This document shows, in pieces, positions 24,797 through 31,313 of a stretch of DNA of 64,000 nt. The notes under the pieces were generated by a model, which saw only the letters and a program-made list of their open reading frames with translations, ran no database searches and had not been told where the DNA came from. A program made the translations under genes and the position numbers. This DNA comes from an uncultured Alcaligenaceae bacterium (GTDB lineage Bacteria > Planctomycetota > Planctomycetia > Gemmatales > Gemmataceae), in assembly GCA_964630925.1 (NCBI GenBank), contig CAZVZK010000027.1, forward strand, positions 2,135 through 66,134, given 5' to 3'. Each line of letters opens with the position of its first letter. The first letter of the stretch is position 1.

Positions 24797-26311
24797 ATGA
24801 GCCGTCTCGTACCTTCCCTCACCCTCTGCGTGGTGCTGATGTTCTTCGGCGCGGCCGCGTACGGGGCCGCGCCCGTGCCCGGCGTGCCCCGGTCGGCCGC
24901 CTACCGCTGGCTCGACATCGCCCTGGAGGCCACCGCCCGCGAGCACGAACGCAACGGCCCGCGGCCGACGGTCGGCTCGCGCATGCTCGCCATCGTGGTG
25001 ACGGCGATGTATGACGCCTGGGCCGCCTACGACGACAAGGCCGTTGGCACGAGGCTTGGGGCCGGCCTGCGGCGGCCGCCGCGTGAACGCACGCTCGCCA
25101 ACAAGGAGGCCGCCGTCGGGCACGCGGCGTATCGCGCCCTGCTCGACATCTTCCCCGAGCAGGCGAGGTGGCTGGCCGGGCAGATGCGGGCCGAGGGCCT
25201 CGACGCCGGCACCGGTGCAGGCCTGGCGGGGACGCCGCGTGCCGTCGGCGAGGCCGCCGCGGCGGCGCTGCTCGCATACCGCCGCCACGACGGGGCCAAC
25301 CAGCTCGGCGACGAGGAGGGCTCCGGGGGCGGCGCCTACTCGGACTACACCTTCTACCGCCCGGTCAACCCCGTTGACCGCATCATCGACCCGGACTGCT
25401 GGCAGCCGATCGAGTTCGATAACGGCAGGAGCGGCAAGGTGACGCCCGGCTTCCTCACGCCGCACTGGTACCGCGTCAAGCCGTTCGCGCTCGCCCGCGC
25501 CTCCCAGCTCCGCCCCCCCGGCCCCCCGAAGGTCGGGTCGAAGCAGATGAAGAAGGAGGTGGACGAGGTGCTGTCGTTCAACGGGAGCCTGACGGTGGAG
25601 CAGAAGGCCGTCGTCGAGTTCATGCGCGACGGGCCGCGATCGACGGGCCAGTCCGGCCACTGGCTCCGCTTCGCCCAGGTCGTGTCGCGCCGCGACGGCC
25701 ACGGCCTCGACCAGGACATCAAGCTGTTCTTCTCCGTGGGCAACGTCGTGTTCGACGCCTTCATCGCCTGCTGGGAGGCGAAGCGCTTCTACGACAGCTC
25801 GCGGCCCTGGACGCTGATCCGCCACTACTACAAGGGCAAGAAGATCGTAGGCTGGGGCGGGGCGGGCAAGGGCGTCGTCCTGCTCCCCGCCGAGGACTGG
25901 CACCCGTACTCCCCGCTCACGTTCATCACGCCGCCCTTCCCCGGCTACCCGTCGGGTCATAGCACGGCGAGCGGGGCGGCGGCGAAGATGCTCGAGCTGT
26001 TCACCGGCAGTGACCACTTCGGCGGCACCGAACGCCGCCTCGCCGGAGAGCTGACCGAGCCGGGGTTCGAGTGCAAGGTTATGATGCGCCACCTGGGGAA
26101 GTTCCCGCTCGACGCGAAGATGACGTGCGACGTGGCCCTGCGCCTGCCGACGTTTTCCGCGACGGCGGAGATGGCCGGCATCTCGCGCGTCATGGGCGGC
26201 TACCACATTCAGACGGACAACATCGACGGCCTGAAACTGGGCCGCGACGTGGCGTCGTACTCCTGGCCGCGCTACCGCGCCTACTTCGACGGCACGGCGA
26301 AGCCACGCTGA
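24797..26311 (+). CDS. PAP2 superfamily / vanadium-dependent haloperoxidase-like protein
   Basis: GAGGAGG RBS and a signal peptide. C-terminal PAP2 motifs: FPGYPSGHSTASGAAAKML and GISRVMGGYHIQTDNIDGLKLGRDVA. Confidence 0.85.
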   Translation: MSRLVPSLTLCVVLMFFGAAAYGAAPVPGVPRSAAYRWLDIALEATAREHERNGPRPTVGSRMLAIVVTAMYDAWAAYDDKAVGTRLGAGLRRPPRERTLANKEAAVGHAAYRALLDIFPEQARWLAGQMRAEGLDAGTGAGLAGTPRAVGEAAAAALLAYRRHDGANQLGDEEGSGGGAYSDYTFYRPVNPVDRIIDPDCWQPIEFDNGRSGKVTPGFLTPHWYRVKPFALARASQLRPPGPPKVGSKQMKKEVDEVLSFNGSLTVEQKAVVEFMRDGPRSTGQSGHWLRFAQVVSRRDGHGLDQDIKLFFSVGNVVFDAFIACWEAKRFYDSSRPWTLIRHYYKGKKIVGWGGAGKGVVLLPAEDWHPYSPLTFITPPFPGYPSGHSTASGAAAKMLELFTGSDHFGGTERRLAGELTEPGFECKVMMRHLGKFPLDAKMTCDVALRLPTFSATAEMAGISRVMGGYHIQTDNIDGLKLGRDVASYSWPRYRAYFDGTAKPR

Positions 26312-26322
26312 GACCCCCCTCG

Positions 26323-26952
26323 TCACGGCGCGATGCGCCGCCCTGGGACCACGTCCTCGACGGCGTCCTTGCCCTCCTGGATGGCGATGTGGCGGTTCGC
26401 CTTCAGGCCCTTGAGGGTCTGCACCGTGCCGGAGGGCCAGCGGACGGTGAGGCTGTCCAGCGTGTCGGCGCCGCCGAGGCCGAAGTGGACGAGGGCCGGG
26501 GCCTGCGAGCGGAAGGTGTTGGCCGGGTACAGCTCGCGGATCTGGCGCAGCCCGCCGGCCACGGCGGTCAGGCGGGCGCCGATGCCGCGGTGGTTCCCGC
26601 CCTTCCCCCGGAGGGACACCGTGAGGTAATTCCGCCTCGGCATGGCGTTCTCGTACAGGAGCAGGGGGCCGCCGCCGACCTGGCGGACGATGAGGTCGAG
26701 CATGCCGGTGTTGCGGAAGTCGGCGGCGACGACGGCGCGGCCGTCGCCGTCGCTGTCGGCCCCGGTCAGGTGGCTGATCTCGAGGAACGCCCCGCCGGCG
26801 TCGTTGAGGTAGATCCGGTTGCGTTCGAAGGCGCTGAGGTTGTGGCCGTCGGCGACGATCTGCCAGGGGTTGGTGGACCAGAACTCGCCCAGGCCCTTGT
26901 CGAGGGCCCCGGGGGCGGGCACCACGGCTCCACGGTCGTTCGGCTGTGACAC
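26323..26952 (-). CDS. ASPIC/UnbV-type C-terminal segment; most likely the continuation of 26974..29397 across an in-frame TGA
   Basis: Same reading frame as the upstream ORF, with no stop in the 21 nt between. The 'start' is an internal GTG. Contains a final FG-GAP-like repeat (GADSDGDGRAVVAADFRNTGMLDLIV) and an UnbV_ASPIC-like end (NYLTVSLRGKGGNHRGIGARL...LTVRWPSGTVQTL). Confidence 0.6.
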   Translation of the reverse strand: MSQPNDRGAVVPAPGALDKGLGEFWSTNPWQIVADGHNLSAFERNRIYLNDAGGAFLEISHLTGADSDGDGRAVVAADFRNTGMLDLIVRQVGGGPLLLYENAMPRRNYLTVSLRGKGGNHRGIGARLTAVAGGLRQIRELYPANTFRSQAPALVHFGLGGADTLDSLTVRWPSGTVQTLKGLKANRHIAIQEGKDAVEDVVPGRRIAP

Positions 26953-26973
26953 GACAGCCAGCCAGACGCAGTT

Positions 26974-29397
26974 TCAGCCGTCGGGCTCGGTGCGGCTGCG
27001 GCTGATGAAGCCGGCCGTGGCGTAGATGTCGAGCCAGCCGTCGTTGTCGAGGTCGGCGAGGCAGGCGCCGTAGGCCCACCCGACCGCGGCGACGCCCATG
27101 CGTTCCCCGGCCTGGTCGAACTTCAGGCCGCCCCTGTTGAGGTGGAGCTGGCTGCCGGCGACGAAGCGGCGCATCTTCTCCATGACAGCGGGCCGATAGG
27201 CGTCCGGCTTGAGGGCGTCCAGGACGCGTGTGCCGGCCTTGCTGAACATGTTGGCGCAGTAGAGGTCGATGCGCCCGTCGTTGTCGATGTCGCCCGCCGC
27301 GACACCCATGCTGCCGAAGTCCGCCGGGCGGCCGGCCAGGGCCGTGGGGCGGAACGTTCCGTCCCTGTTGTTGACGAGGAGGACGCCGTCGCCGAACTCG
27401 TTGATGACGTGGAGGTCGGGCCACCCGTCATCGTCCGCGTCAAGGACGGCGGCGGAGAAGGAGGAGCGGCGTCCGCCGTCGGCCCCGGCCGCCCGCGTCA
27501 CGTCCTGGAACTTCCAGCCGCCCAGGTTGCGGAAGAGGCGGTTCCCGAGCGGGTCGGCGGTGCGCGGGTCGAGCCATGACCGCCCGCCGGGGCGTCCGGG
27601 GCGTGTGGCGTACAGGTCGAGCCGGCCGTCGCGGTCGAAGTCGGCGACGACGAGGCCGCCAGCGTCGGGGGGGATGCGGAGAGAGCAGAGGGCGGTGTGG
27701 TCCACGAAGCGCTCGCCGCCCTCATTCCGGTAGACGCGGCCCCCGAGGATGAGGTCGTCCCAGCCGTCGCCGTCGATGTCGATCCAGGCGGCCACGTGGC
27801 CGGCCGGCTCAGCGGGCAGGCCGCGGGCGGCGGTGACGTCCTCGAAGCCGCCGCCGGGCTTGCCCCGGTAGAGCCAGCAACCCTTGAGGTCGGTGATGAG
27901 GACGTCGAGGACGCCGTCCCGGTCGAAGTCGGTGACGTACACCCCTCCGGTCATGGGGGCGGTCCAGCTGGCGGTCCAGTTGTCGTGGAGGCGTTCGGGG
28001 CGGAGGCCGCGTTTGGCGGCGGCCTCGTAGAAGAGGCGGTGGGTGGCCCGAGCCTCGGTCAGTTGGGCGATGTCGGCGCCAGCCAGCCAGCCGGGCCGCG
28101 ACAAGGCCTCCCTGGTGAGGGCGGGGAGGCGGAAGGGGAAGAGGATGATGGCCTCGGCCGGGGCGCCTGGGCGGTGTTCGCCGGAGAGGCGCACCTGGGC
28201 CACGCCTTCCCAGGCGCCGTCGAGTTTGCCGCGCTCGACGGGGCGGAGGGCCTTGAGCGAGAATTGGACCTCGGGCGGTGAGGAGAACGTCTTGCGGATG
28301 CCGAGCAGGCGGGCGGCGAAGGCGGCGCGGCCGAGTGGGGTGGACGTCCCGCCCCGGAGGCGTGTCACCGTGGCGAAGCCGCGGTCCTGCCGGGCGGGGG
28401 AGCCGGAGGGTGCGGTGCCGGAGAAGCCTTCGGCGAGGATGGCGGTGAGGGCGGCCGCGTCGGCCTCCTTGATGGCCCTGGCGAGGGGGCCGAACCCGTG
28501 TCGTGCCAGCTCGTTGCCGCGGTTCTCGACCTTCCAGATGTGGGCCCGCTCCTCCTCGGGCAGGCCGCCCCTGGGGGCGAGGGACTTGGCGGCGGCGCGA
28601 TGGGCCTTGAGGTCCGCGCCGAGGCTCCTGAGGGCGTTCTCGGCGCTCTCGCGGAGCAGGGGGTTGGGCTCGGCGAGGAGGGGCGTGAGGAGCGGGATGG
28701 CGACGCGGGCCTGCTCGCCGATCTCGCCCAGGCCGCGGGCGGCGGCGGCACGCAGCTCCTCCGTATGCTCGCCCTCCAGGATATCCGTCAGCGGCCGGAC
28801 GCCCTCGGCGCTGCCGGCACTGGCGCGGCCCAGGGCGATGGCGGCCTGCTCCTGGATGGTGACGTGGAAGCGGCCCAGGTTGGTTTGATTCGCCTCGTCG
28901 CGGATGGCCACGGCCAGGGCGGGGATGGCGGCGCGGGCCGCCGACCCGAGCCGCGCCAGGGCGGTGGCTGCGTTCATACGCACGCCGAGGCCATCATCAG
29001 TCAGGGCCGCCGCCAGTGCGGGGACGGCGGGGGCGGACGCGGGGGACATCTTCAAGAGGGTCAGGGCCGCGGCGGCGCGTTCCTCCTCGTCGCCGTCTCG
29101 CAGCAGGGCCGCCAGGGCCGGGACGGCCTCGGCCGCGTCGGCCCCGATGGCGCCCAGGGCCAACGTGGCCGCCAGCCGGGCCTCGCGGGGCCCGCTTTGC
29201 AACTGGGCCAGCCAGTGGCTCGCGGGCTTGCCCTCGTGCGTGGCCTTCGGGAAAAGAAGGCCCGGCAGGAACGCGGGGCTGCCCGGGGTCAGCACTGCCA
29301 GGGCCGCCACCACGAGGGCGACACATCCGATCCAGAAGGCGCGATGTCGCCCCGCGGGGCGGCGCGCCGGCGCTTGTCCAGTTGCTTCGTCTGGCAT
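26974..29397 (-). CDS. Membrane-anchored HEAT-repeat + FG-GAP/VCBS repeat protein (CRTAC1-like), terminated by the TGA at 26974-26976
   Basis: ATG start and a TM anchor (AFWIGCVALVVAALAVL). Four or five HEAT units (AVPALAALLRDGDEE..., AIPALAVAIRDEAN...). Multiple FG-GAP/VCBS repeats follow (DFDRDGVLDVLI, DIDGDGWDDLIL, DFDRDGRLDLY, DADDDGWPDLHV, DIDNDGRIDLYC, DLDNDGWLDIY). Confidence 0.8.
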   Translation of the reverse strand: MPDEATGQAPARRPAGRHRAFWIGCVALVVAALAVLTPGSPAFLPGLLFPKATHEGKPASHWLAQLQSGPREARLAATLALGAIGADAAEAVPALAALLRDGDEEERAAAALTLLKMSPASAPAVPALAAALTDDGLGVRMNAATALARLGSAARAAIPALAVAIRDEANQTNLGRFHVTIQEQAAIALGRASAGSAEGVRPLTDILEGEHTEELRAAAARGLGEIGEQARVAIPLLTPLLAEPNPLLRESAENALRSLGADLKAHRAAAKSLAPRGGLPEEERAHIWKVENRGNELARHGFGPLARAIKEADAAALTAILAEGFSGTAPSGSPARQDRGFATVTRLRGGTSTPLGRAAFAARLLGIRKTFSSPPEVQFSLKALRPVERGKLDGAWEGVAQVRLSGEHRPGAPAEAIILFPFRLPALTREALSRPGWLAGADIAQLTEARATHRLFYEAAAKRGLRPERLHDNWTASWTAPMTGGVYVTDFDRDGVLDVLITDLKGCWLYRGKPGGGFEDVTAARGLPAEPAGHVAAWIDIDGDGWDDLILGGRVYRNEGGERFVDHTALCSLRIPPDAGGLVVADFDRDGRLDLYATRPGRPGGRSWLDPRTADPLGNRLFRNLGGWKFQDVTRAAGADGGRRSSFSAAVLDADDDGWPDLHVINEFGDGVLLVNNRDGTFRPTALAGRPADFGSMGVAAGDIDNDGRIDLYCANMFSKAGTRVLDALKPDAYRPAVMEKMRRFVAGSQLHLNRGGLKFDQAGERMGVAAVGWAYGACLADLDNDGWLDIYATAGFISRSRTEPDG

Positions 29398-29561: not shown

Positions 29562-31313
<1,752 letters not shown>

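Follow-up and report, generated by a model that had tools for sequence, protein, structure and literature searches.

A conserved in-frame UGA, very probably a selenocysteine codon, in a HEAT/FG-GAP/UnbV gene of Planctomycetota

In the stretch of 64,000 nucleotides analysed here (the window), a minus-strand gene is interrupted by a single in-frame UGA at 26974-26976. We conclude that this UGA is very probably a selenocysteine (Sec) codon, at which SelB- and hairpin-directed insertion would yield one protein of 1024 residues. An earlier note on this DNA had proposed the codon as a selenocysteine candidate, and the proposal is now supported by a conserved TGA, a constant SECIS-type hairpin, a constrained downstream part, a sel operon beside one homologue and one homologue of Cys form. 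The features discussed are collected in Table 1.

Table 1. Coordinates of the proposed selenoprotein gene, its elements and its neighbours in the window
Feature	Position	Strand	Evidence or remark
Complete read-through CDS, 1024 residues including Sec808	26323..29397	-	terminal TGA 26323-26325
In-frame UGA, proposed selenocysteine codon, residue 808	26974..26976	-	TGA column in 86/86 related loci and in L164
Cys codon TGC at +2, giving U-x-C	26968..26970	-	invariant in 84 unique sequences
Upper stem-loop of the proposed SECIS, GGCUGU / CGUGUC / ACAGCC	26942..26959	-	third-position entropy, compensatory change in L102, absence in L165
Possible extended SECIS, lower stem CUGCG/CGUGG around the upper hairpin	26930..26971	-	weakly supported
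HEAT-repeat region, about residues 60-260	28618..29220	-	Pfam HEAT_2, E 6e-19
UnbV_ASPIC domain, reached only if the UGA is decoded	26389..26586	-	PF07593, E 2.1e-20, residues 130-195 of the downstream piece
Convergent neighbour, DUF6851 + VCPO_2nd + PAP2, vanadium haloperoxidase-like	24797..26311	+	Pfam
Divergent FG-GAP/UnbV paralogue without in-frame TGA	29562..31313 (or from 29016)	+	Pfam

The read-through frame and its predicted product

Translation reproduced the ORF, the TGA and the 1024-residue read-through described in the earlier note. The ORF (26974..29397) opens with ATG and encodes 807 aa up to the TGA, after which the frame stays open for 216 further codons, to the TGA at 26323-26325. 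Read-through gives 807+1+216 = 1024 residues, with the junction context ...SRSRTEPDG*NCVWLAVVSQPNDRG..., and the junction peptide predicted for the Sec form is ...TEPDG-U-NCVWLAVVSQPNDR. An open frame after a stop is weak evidence on its own, because the DNA is 70% GC. The downstream frame, however, has a GC3 of 0.96, contains a domain that Pfam scores as significant and is conserved in about 90 further loci, which is far beyond chance. TGA is the usual stop for most genes of the window, so the genetic code is not reassigned. Three same-frame ORF pairs (37465-39294/35065-37461, 49771-50316/48859-49767 and 10558-11397/11401-11871) were tried as further Sec candidates and rejected, as Pfam identified them as unrelated adjacent genes.

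The N-terminus consists of a basic and then a hydrophobic stretch, probably a signal peptide or anchor, and is followed by HEAT repeats, a conserved middle region, an FG-GAP beta-propeller and a C-terminal UnbV/ASPIC domain. Pfam assigned HEAT and FG-GAP (PF13517, E 2e-35) to the piece upstream of the TGA, and FG-GAP_3 and UnbV_ASPIC to the piece downstream, which is the division first read from the letters. The architecture of FG-GAP/VCBS followed by UnbV_ASPIC in one polypeptide is satisfied only with the UGA decoded. The intact paralogue next door, already pointed out in that reading, does carry FG-GAP and UnbV_ASPIC on one polypeptide, and is without the insert that bears the U-x-C motif. 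The fusion to HEAT repeats had been thought unusual, a view we do not retain: among the 117 truncated homologues listed (see below), the full-length matches carry HEAT families, and the short partial matches are without the HEAT region.

The U-x-C motif sits in an insert of roughly 60 residues between two propeller blades. An AF2 model of the last 540 residues reached a pLDDT of 81.5 and a pTM of 0.85; its residues 314-373, exactly around the Sec site, had a pLDDT below 50, probably because database sequences break there. By fold, the best PDB match was CRTAC1 (9etn_A), with E 4.5e-22 and TM 0.68; the best match by sequence had E 4.9e-9. Of 31 loci with 1.5 kb or more of flanking sequence, 6 have a homologue of the convergent neighbour (61-73% identity) adjoining the Sec gene, and this VCPO-like neighbour may be a functional partner of the Sec gene.

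Conservation of the UGA and of the sequence around it

The suggestion that relatives might carry TGA at the same place was borne out by alignment: the homologous column was TGA in all 86 related loci, drawn from genomes and metagenomes and sharing 47-78% protein identity with the window, and was also TGA in L164. Adding L162, in which the window's own gene recurs in a separate assembly, gives a set of 87 loci. The genuine terminal stop of these genes varies (51 TGA, 18 TAA, 9 TAG). At the protein level, 117 non-self homologues among the best 120 matches (65-77% identity) covered exactly 60% of the read-through query, meaning that these proteins stop at the TGA column; the seven that were inspected all end in ...PDG, and where named the truncated homologues come from Gemmataceae MAGs. 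A scan of genome contigs with very general FG-GAP patterns, with most Gemmataceae genomes outside its scope, gave at least six close loci. TGA with the hairpin was sought in viral contigs and not found there. A protein with W at the column (P0273) was rejected as a Trp variant: the underlying codon is TGA, which the gene caller had translated with genetic code 4.

Coding sequence runs on past the TGA in all of the related loci. In 86 of the 87 loci the parts on either side of the TGA share one frame, and in 76 of 78 the downstream ORF is 207-255 codons long. Compared with the window, mean identity was 63.2% downstream and 64.1% upstream, and downstream pN/pS was 0.10-0.42, similar to upstream. 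Purifying selection acts on the 216-residue downstream part, which is as conserved as the upstream part. The codons for N-C-V-W-L, which separate the UGA from the first codon at which translation could restart, change only synonymously (GTC/GTG/GTT/GTA, CTG/TTG), and so are translated in the read-through frame. The very recent pseudogene that had been considered for this gene is rejected, since the TGA is common to relatives down to 47% identity and constraint on the downstream part is not relaxed.

The Cys codon seen earlier two codons past the UGA was found as TGC at that place. All 84 unique sequences have this Cys at +2, encoded by TGC in 96%, and several non-Sec relatives retain it too, as T-C-[YILMH]-W. 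We infer that the U-x-C pair would form a redox or metal-binding centre (e.g. a selenenylsulfide) outside the cytoplasm. At the UGA column itself, where the earlier note had asked for a check, homologues have no conserved Cys, relatives without TGA having mostly S, A, E, V, L or D. A fragment of 197 aa with 72% identity (P0121) does have Cys there, in ...EPDG-C-NCVW...; the residue is D in P0002 and A in P0003, is S, A, E, V, L or D in relatives at 35-44% identity, and is S, N or C in acidobacterial homologues. A non-Cys column in most relatives is atypical for selenoproteins and, by the refuting condition set in the earlier note, counts against selenocysteine, an objection that the other evidence outweighs.

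The hairpin, the proposed decoding and its alternatives

The 18-nt hairpin GGCUGUCGUGUCACAGCC is present as first described, starting 14 nt 3′ of the TGA, and occurs in a single copy in the window. Published limits for bacterial SECIS elements are an apical loop of 3-9 nt, an upper stem of 4-16 bp, a G in the first two loop positions, a distance of 16-37 nt from UGA to loop and an MFE of at most -7.5 kcal/mol (PMC13188914). The hairpin lies within all of them, with a 6-nt loop, a 6-bp stem, G-U at loop positions 2-3, a loop that begins 20 nt after the UGA and an MFE of -7.8 kcal/mol alone. The 47 nt from the UGA fold at -15.4 kcal/mol, with a z of only -0.9 against shuffles, which is not significant in this GC-rich sequence.

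The hairpin encodes A-V-V-S-Q-P, and its codons GCT GTC GTG TCA CAG are 96-99% invariant. Third-position entropy, 0.7-1.9 bits at the other four-fold codons that are conserved, is 0.09-0.22 bits in the hairpin; 98% of hairpins have GCT and 96% have TCA, both codons being otherwise rare in these sequences. Such near-invariant synonymous sites show selection at the RNA level, and the hairpin fits the SECIS model. One locus (L102) shows a compensatory change of a U-A to a C-G stem pair, at the cost of a Q-to-R replacement, and three sequences show a change from U-A to U-G. In a covariation test, the hairpin and the lower stem did not exceed shuffled controls, as there is hardly any variation in the stem; covariation was thus uninformative, and the suppression of synonymous variation was used as RNA-level evidence instead. 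The lower helix was paired in 81% of cells, with covariation not above control. Rfam searches of the whole window at the gathering threshold, and of 26880-27010 at E <= 10, returned nothing relevant. In P0003/L165, a relative without TGA, the column is GCC and the hairpin is absent.

The mechanism that we propose on these grounds is that SelB carrying Sec-tRNA(Sec) would bind the hairpin during translation, with the G/U-containing apical loop set 20 nt downstream of the UGA, and that Sec would be inserted at the UGA in place of termination. Both the binding of SelB and the incorporation of selenium are inferred here. The product would have 1024 residues, with a probable export signal, HEAT repeats, a CRTAC1-like FG-GAP propeller and UnbV/ASPIC, and would hold Sec808 and Cys810 as U-x-C.

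The conserved UGA, the hairpin and the translated downstream part do not by themselves point to Sec as the inserted residue, and would also arise if the hairpin stimulated near-cognate decoding of UGA (e.g. by Trp, Cys or Arg) or another form of recoding, giving a full-length protein without selenium. The many residues tolerated at the column in non-TGA relatives agree with this, as does the absence of selA, selB, selD and tRNA-Sec from the 64-kb window. We nevertheless hold it to be improbable, given a hairpin with the geometry and loop rule of bacterial SECIS elements, a Cys-form orthologue (P0121) and the invariant Cys at +2. To our knowledge, no hairpin-stimulated read-through of UGA without Sec has been established for a bacterial cellular gene. 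Against it also stands the Sec machinery itself: on the contig of L004, a homologue with TGA at the column directly adjoins selB, a Transglut_core gene, selA, selD and tRNA-Sec(tca), a complete operon. Machinery in the same genome is shown only for L004; full selA/B/C/D sets have been reported for Gemmata obscuriglobus and Isosphaera pallida, type strains of Gemmataceae and Isosphaeraceae (PMC4807772).

Less probable still is a true stop in a split gene, whose downstream 200-216 residues would come from coupled re-initiation at a GTG inside the hairpin. Gene callers do annotate two ORFs (MBY0231909.1 and MBY0231910.1; 779 + 199 aa on L162), and the GTG lies 24 nt past the TGA, but the codons between the two vary synonymously and keep the residues that they encode, the parts before and after the TGA always share one frame with neither spacer nor indels, and the stop at the column is always TGA though the genuine terminal stop varies. 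A split would moreover cut the beta-propeller between blades, and in the non-TGA relatives, as in the paralogue next door, the protein is one polypeptide. A lone in-frame stop in an otherwise intact gene is also what a new nonsense mutation or a miscalled base would look like in one sequence; a recent pseudogene or a sequencing or consensus error at 26974-26976 is scarcely credible, however, with TGA in 86 of 86 independent loci from many samples and in the second assembly L162, and with purifying selection on the downstream part. Selenocysteine thus remains the reading that we strongly favour.

Relation to known selenoproteins and to the CRTAC1/UnbV family

The recoding mechanism is canonical, and the family is effectively unrecognised, having been flagged only as a candidate in 2016 (PMC4807772). 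The 119 families of prokaryotic selenoproteins catalogued in 2026 include no FG-GAP, ASPIC, UnbV or propeller entry (PMC13188914 Table 1), nor was such a selenoprotein entry found in the text and supplements of deep-Sep or in the text of BSepDB. NCBIfam models gave no match to the C-terminal 540 residues.

Should the UGA encode Sec, database entries by the hundred would be in error, each pair such as MBY0231909.1/MBY0231910.1 in GenBank being one selenoprotein of ~110 kDa cut in two. The bacterial selenoproteome would gain a member without a thioredoxin fold and probably extracytoplasmic, from a phylum and habitats (Planctomycetota of soil and fresh water) of which selenoprotein catalogues have hardly any examples. 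The family would also illustrate clearly how Sec can occupy a position at which relatives lack Cys, bearing on the origin of Sec sites and on search methods that rely on Sec/Cys pairs. The invariant U-x-C motif would then be the first hint of the chemistry of the CRTAC1/UnbV family, and the near-invariant 18-nt hairpin offers a simple probe for further members and for the specificity of planctomycete SelB. A broader picture, which we offer as a speculation with the chances well against it, is that exported propeller selenoproteins are widespread in Planctomycetota, including those of soil and freshwater; that Sec was recruited at a variable position beside a semi-conserved Cys, not from a catalytic Cys, creating U-x-C; and that the protein works with the vanadium-haloperoxidase-like PAP2 neighbour in extracytoplasmic peroxide/hypohalite chemistry. 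Were this so, it would give the first catalytic clue for the functionally obscure CRTAC1/UnbV family.

The nearest precedent is a set of four candidates in the S9 Table of a 2016 PLoS One paper, each divided at a TGA into a pair of neighbouring gene annotations, with a SECIS found by bSECISearch in three of the four and with Gly, not Cys, at the column of the closest non-Sec match (PMC4807772). They belong to the same domain family and phylum as the window gene, and the unusual gene order selD-selA-transglutaminase-selB, described in that paper for P2, is the order beside the gene in L004. The 2016 record amounts to four lines of a supplementary table without comparative evidence, and its Sec position may be the same column as in the window gene. 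The window gene differs from these candidates in its soil/freshwater, Gemmataceae-type clade and in the added N-terminal HEAT region.

As in E. coli fdhF, the UGA is followed by a stem-loop within the coding region, with G/U in the apical loop and spacing suited to SelB, although the hairpin shares no sequence similarity with the fdhF SECIS. Canonical bacterial selenoprotein genes can likewise adjoin sel genes, as in L004; unlike canonical selenoproteins, the window protein belongs to no known type of oxidoreductase, and its Sec replaces no conserved Cys. The same Sec-x-Cys spacing occurs in the Sec.2 thioredoxin-like selenoprotein and in the SO_0444 family Cu/Zn efflux transporter, where UxC is interpreted as a site of redox activity or metal binding (PMC13188914 Table 1); this is a likeness of motif only, between unrelated folds with no sequence similarity. 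With CRTAC1/ASPIC/UnbV proteins (PF13517 + PF07593; murine CRTAC1 9etn), the window protein shares the FG-GAP/VCBS propeller followed by UnbV_ASPIC, and is set apart from them by the U-x-C insert of roughly 60 residues and the N-terminal HEAT repeats.

Conservation of the in-frame TGA and of the frame behind it

Re-reading of the sequence and Pfam searches bore out every detail of the earlier note's description: the ORF, the TGA, the open frame beyond it, the domain split, the hairpin and the Cys codon at +2. HEAT and FG-GAP repeats lie 5′ of the TGA, the last FG-GAP repeat and a UnbV_ASPIC domain (E 2e-20) 3′ of it; in the neighbouring paralogue, FG-GAP and UnbV_ASPIC are found within one chain. 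The hairpin is single copy in the whole window, whose GC content is ~70% and in which no tRNA genes or Rfam matches were found. Window genes (PSCyt2/PSD1, BatA/VWA) and named best matches point to a Gemmataceae-type planctomycete as the probable host. Most window genes end in TGA as their normal stop, hence there is no code reassignment.

Coordinates of the features (L-numbers are related DNA loci)
Feature	Location	Strand	Description
Upstream ORF	window 26974..29397	minus	807 aa, ATG start, ending in TGA 26974-26976
Downstream frame	window, to TGA 26323-26325	minus	216 further open codons, same frame
Hairpin	window 26942-26959	minus	GGCTGT-CGTGTC-ACAGCC, 14 nt 3′ of TGA
Neighbouring paralogue	window 29562-31313	plus	FG-GAP/UnbV; head-to-head with Sec gene, divergent
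VCPO-like gene	window 24797-26311	plus	DUF6851 + VCPO_2nd + PAP2; adjoins Sec gene
VCPO-like gene copies	L086 1771-3189; L099 4055-5461; L101 252-1670; L106 295-1713; L001 14488-15855; L110 51-1457		
VCPO-like gene	L020 1150-2559		contig labelled Pyrinomonadaceae, Acidobacteria
sel cluster	L004 5145-10518	minus	order tRNA-Sec, selD, selA, Transglut_core gene, selB
Annotation example	L162 567-3557		two adjacent ORFs called
ENA gene call	L164 77-958		genetic code 4; column TGA and three other TGAs read as Trp

The last 540 residues of the read-through protein served as search query; the best 120 protein matches comprised the window's own protein, 117 homologues at 65-77% identity and only two proteins spanning the TGA column (residue 808). 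The 117 each cover exactly 60% of the query, meaning that they end at the column, and the seven viewed in full all terminate in ...PDG. At the DNA level, the codon was TGA in 86 of 86 loci (6 genome, 80 metagenome), a count free of ascertainment effect since the search patterns left out the column. The six genome loci, among the matches listed, are 47-65% identical to the window gene and come from MAGs labelled Planctomycetota, Isosphaeraceae, Planctomycetaceae, "Verrucomicrobiales" and, for one, Alcaligenaceae. L164, additional to the 86, also has TGA. As a matched control, the terminal stop of these genes was TGA in 51 cases, TAA in 18 and TAG in 9: stop codons drift in this locus set, yet not at the column. 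By this evidence the in-frame stop is ancient.

In 76 of 78 loci the downstream frame runs for 207-255 codons without a stop; the two that end early, at 104 and 156 codons, may stem from pseudogenisation or faulty assembly. Upstream and downstream parts share one frame in 86 of the 87 loci compared; these include L162, in which the window's own gene was assembled a second time. Over 53 loci, identity to the window was 63.2% downstream versus 64.1% for the upstream 216 residues, and for close pairs pN/pS was 0.10-0.42 downstream and similar upstream. Moreover, the five codons from the TGA to the first possible restart codon (N-C-V-W-L) vary synonymously (GTC/GTG/GTT/GTA; CTG/TTG), a signature of translation in this frame.

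The hairpin as a candidate SECIS

In 84 unique sequences the hairpin codons GCT GTC GTG TCA CAG (A-V-V-S-Q) are 96-99% invariant, the peptide pattern of the metagenome scan (C[VL]WxAVVSQ) biasing the amino-acid invariance of AVVSQ, without bias on synonymous sites. Third-position entropy is 0.09-0.22 bits for these codons and 0.7-1.9 bits for other conserved four-fold codons between −20 and +40. GCT and TCA are rare elsewhere in these GC-rich genes, and the same hairpin was present in the six genome loci found, among the matches listed, by unrelated search patterns. This synonymous-site invariance shows selection on the hairpin at the RNA level.

The bacterial SECIS model has a loop of 3-9 nt with G within its first two positions, usually then G or U, a stem of 4-16 bp, a UGA-to-loop distance of 16-37 nt and an MFE <= −7.5 kcal/mol (PMC13188914). 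The hairpin proposed earlier as SECIS-like falls within this model for loop (CGUGUC), stem (6 bp), spacing (20 nt) and MFE (−7.8 kcal/mol alone, −15.4 when a possible lower stem is included). For GC-rich sequence such folding is nothing out of the ordinary, and formal covariation did not exceed that of shuffled controls, as the stem hardly changes. One locus (L102) carries a compensatory U-A to C-G change, at the cost of a Gln-to-Arg replacement, and three sequences have U-A changed to U-G. P0003/L165, the one non-TGA relative whose DNA was read, has GCC at the column and lacks the hairpin. A divergent outlier (L105) keeps the TGA and A-V-V-S-Q-P with quite different codons (GGCGGTGGTCTCGCAACC), which destroy the hairpin shared by the others; a 3-bp stem closing a GUGGUCU loop could form instead, and this locus may carry another form of SECIS or be a copy in decay.

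Protein context and neighbouring genes

The N-terminus of the read-through protein, a basic then a hydrophobic stretch, suggests export or membrane anchoring. The HEAT fusion, previously considered unusual, proved to be the norm in this clade, HEAT repeat families being also found in full-length truncated homologues. A model of the C-terminal 540 residues gave a beta-propeller plus a beta domain (pLDDT 81.5, pTM 0.85), the best PDB match being murine CRTAC1 (9etn_A; fold E 4.5e-22, TM 0.68; sequence E 4.9e-9). An insert of ~60 residues (model residues 314-373) holds the Sec site; model confidence is low over this stretch, probably because the sequences in databases are cut at that very point. 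Neither an in-frame TGA nor the ~45-60-residue insert bearing U-x-C occurs in the neighbouring paralogue, so that two sub-families of one fold stand side by side.

The VCPO-like gene, resembling vanadium haloperoxidase, adjoins the Sec gene in the window and, among the 31 related loci whose flank is long enough, in 6, in varying orientation, and the two may form a functional partnership. Weak homologues were seen near ordinary FG-GAP/ASPIC genes in Flavobacteria loci (L040, L054, L068). The L020 copy is 69% identical to the window's, surprisingly close for another phylum, which suggests a mis-binned contig or horizontal transfer.

Decoding of the UGA and comparison with known selenoproteins

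E. coli SelA, SelB and SelD queries and ARAGORN were run over the window and all loci. They found no selA, selB, selD or tRNA-Sec in the 64-kb window. In L004, whose homologue has TGA at the column, a full sel set lies directly downstream within 5.4 kb. It is convergent with the Sec-FG-GAP gene, whose end is ~4 nt away; its tRNA-Sec has the anticodon label tca, and its selB encodes the beta-barrel and winged-helix domains specific to SelB. The contig's Verrucomicrobiales label may reflect an error in binning or labelling.

Taken with the invariant TGA, the hairpin constrained at synonymous sites and the translated downstream part, this cluster supports the selenocysteine candidate of the earlier note, and we consider it very probable that the UGA is decoded as Sec through a coding-region SECIS. 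The main point against a Sec reading is the residue found in relatives lacking the TGA. A 197-residue fragment (P0121, 72% identity) is a Cys form, EPDG-C-NCVW, with SQP replaced by SPP. The column residue is D in P0002 and A in P0003; among acidobacterial homologues it is S, N or C. Representatives at 35-44% identity show S, A, E, V, L or D there, and several retain the +2 Cys. Sec thus seems to occupy a variable position beside a semi-conserved Cys, an arrangement unusual for selenoproteins. We judged that the other evidence outweighs this, and read-through of the UGA with an amino acid other than Sec is improbable.

A split gene is what GenBank and Logan/IMG call, as two adjacent ORFs, the second being given a Val start codon within or close to the hairpin (consecutive accessions MBY0231909.1/MBY0231910.1, P0004/P0127). 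The translated N-C-V-W-L segment, ahead of any restart codon, and the constrained downstream frame argue against it, and we hold it to be very unlikely. The "very recent pseudogene" option raised previously is excluded by the shared TGA, the synonymous N-C-V-W-L variation and a downstream frame as conserved as the upstream part; pseudogene or error is hardly credible as an explanation. Public annotation also mishandles the gene through the call under genetic code 4. Three short predicted proteins from ENA contigs of 519-556 bp (P0122, P0123, P0124) begin with MSQP..., from past the hairpin, and end with ...PDG, from before the TGA. This order, as if circularly permuted, is probably an assembly-graph artefact on tiny contigs.

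A 2026 catalogue of 119 prokaryotic selenoprotein families contains no such FG-GAP/UnbV family (PMC13188914), nor is it mentioned in the deep-Sep paper and supplements or the BSepDB text, and none of the NCBIfam models represents it. Recoding would follow the canonical mechanism, not a new one; the family, effectively unrecognised, is well supported, widespread and atypical in both fold and Sec-site origin. It was partly foreshadowed in 2016, when a supplementary table of Kim et al. marked it as a candidate (PMC4807772). The same authors reported that Gemmata obscuriglobus and Isosphaera pallida have all of selA/B/C/D, and described an unusual gene order, transglutaminase-like gene included, unique to planctomycete "P2", which is the arrangement matched by the L004 sel cluster.
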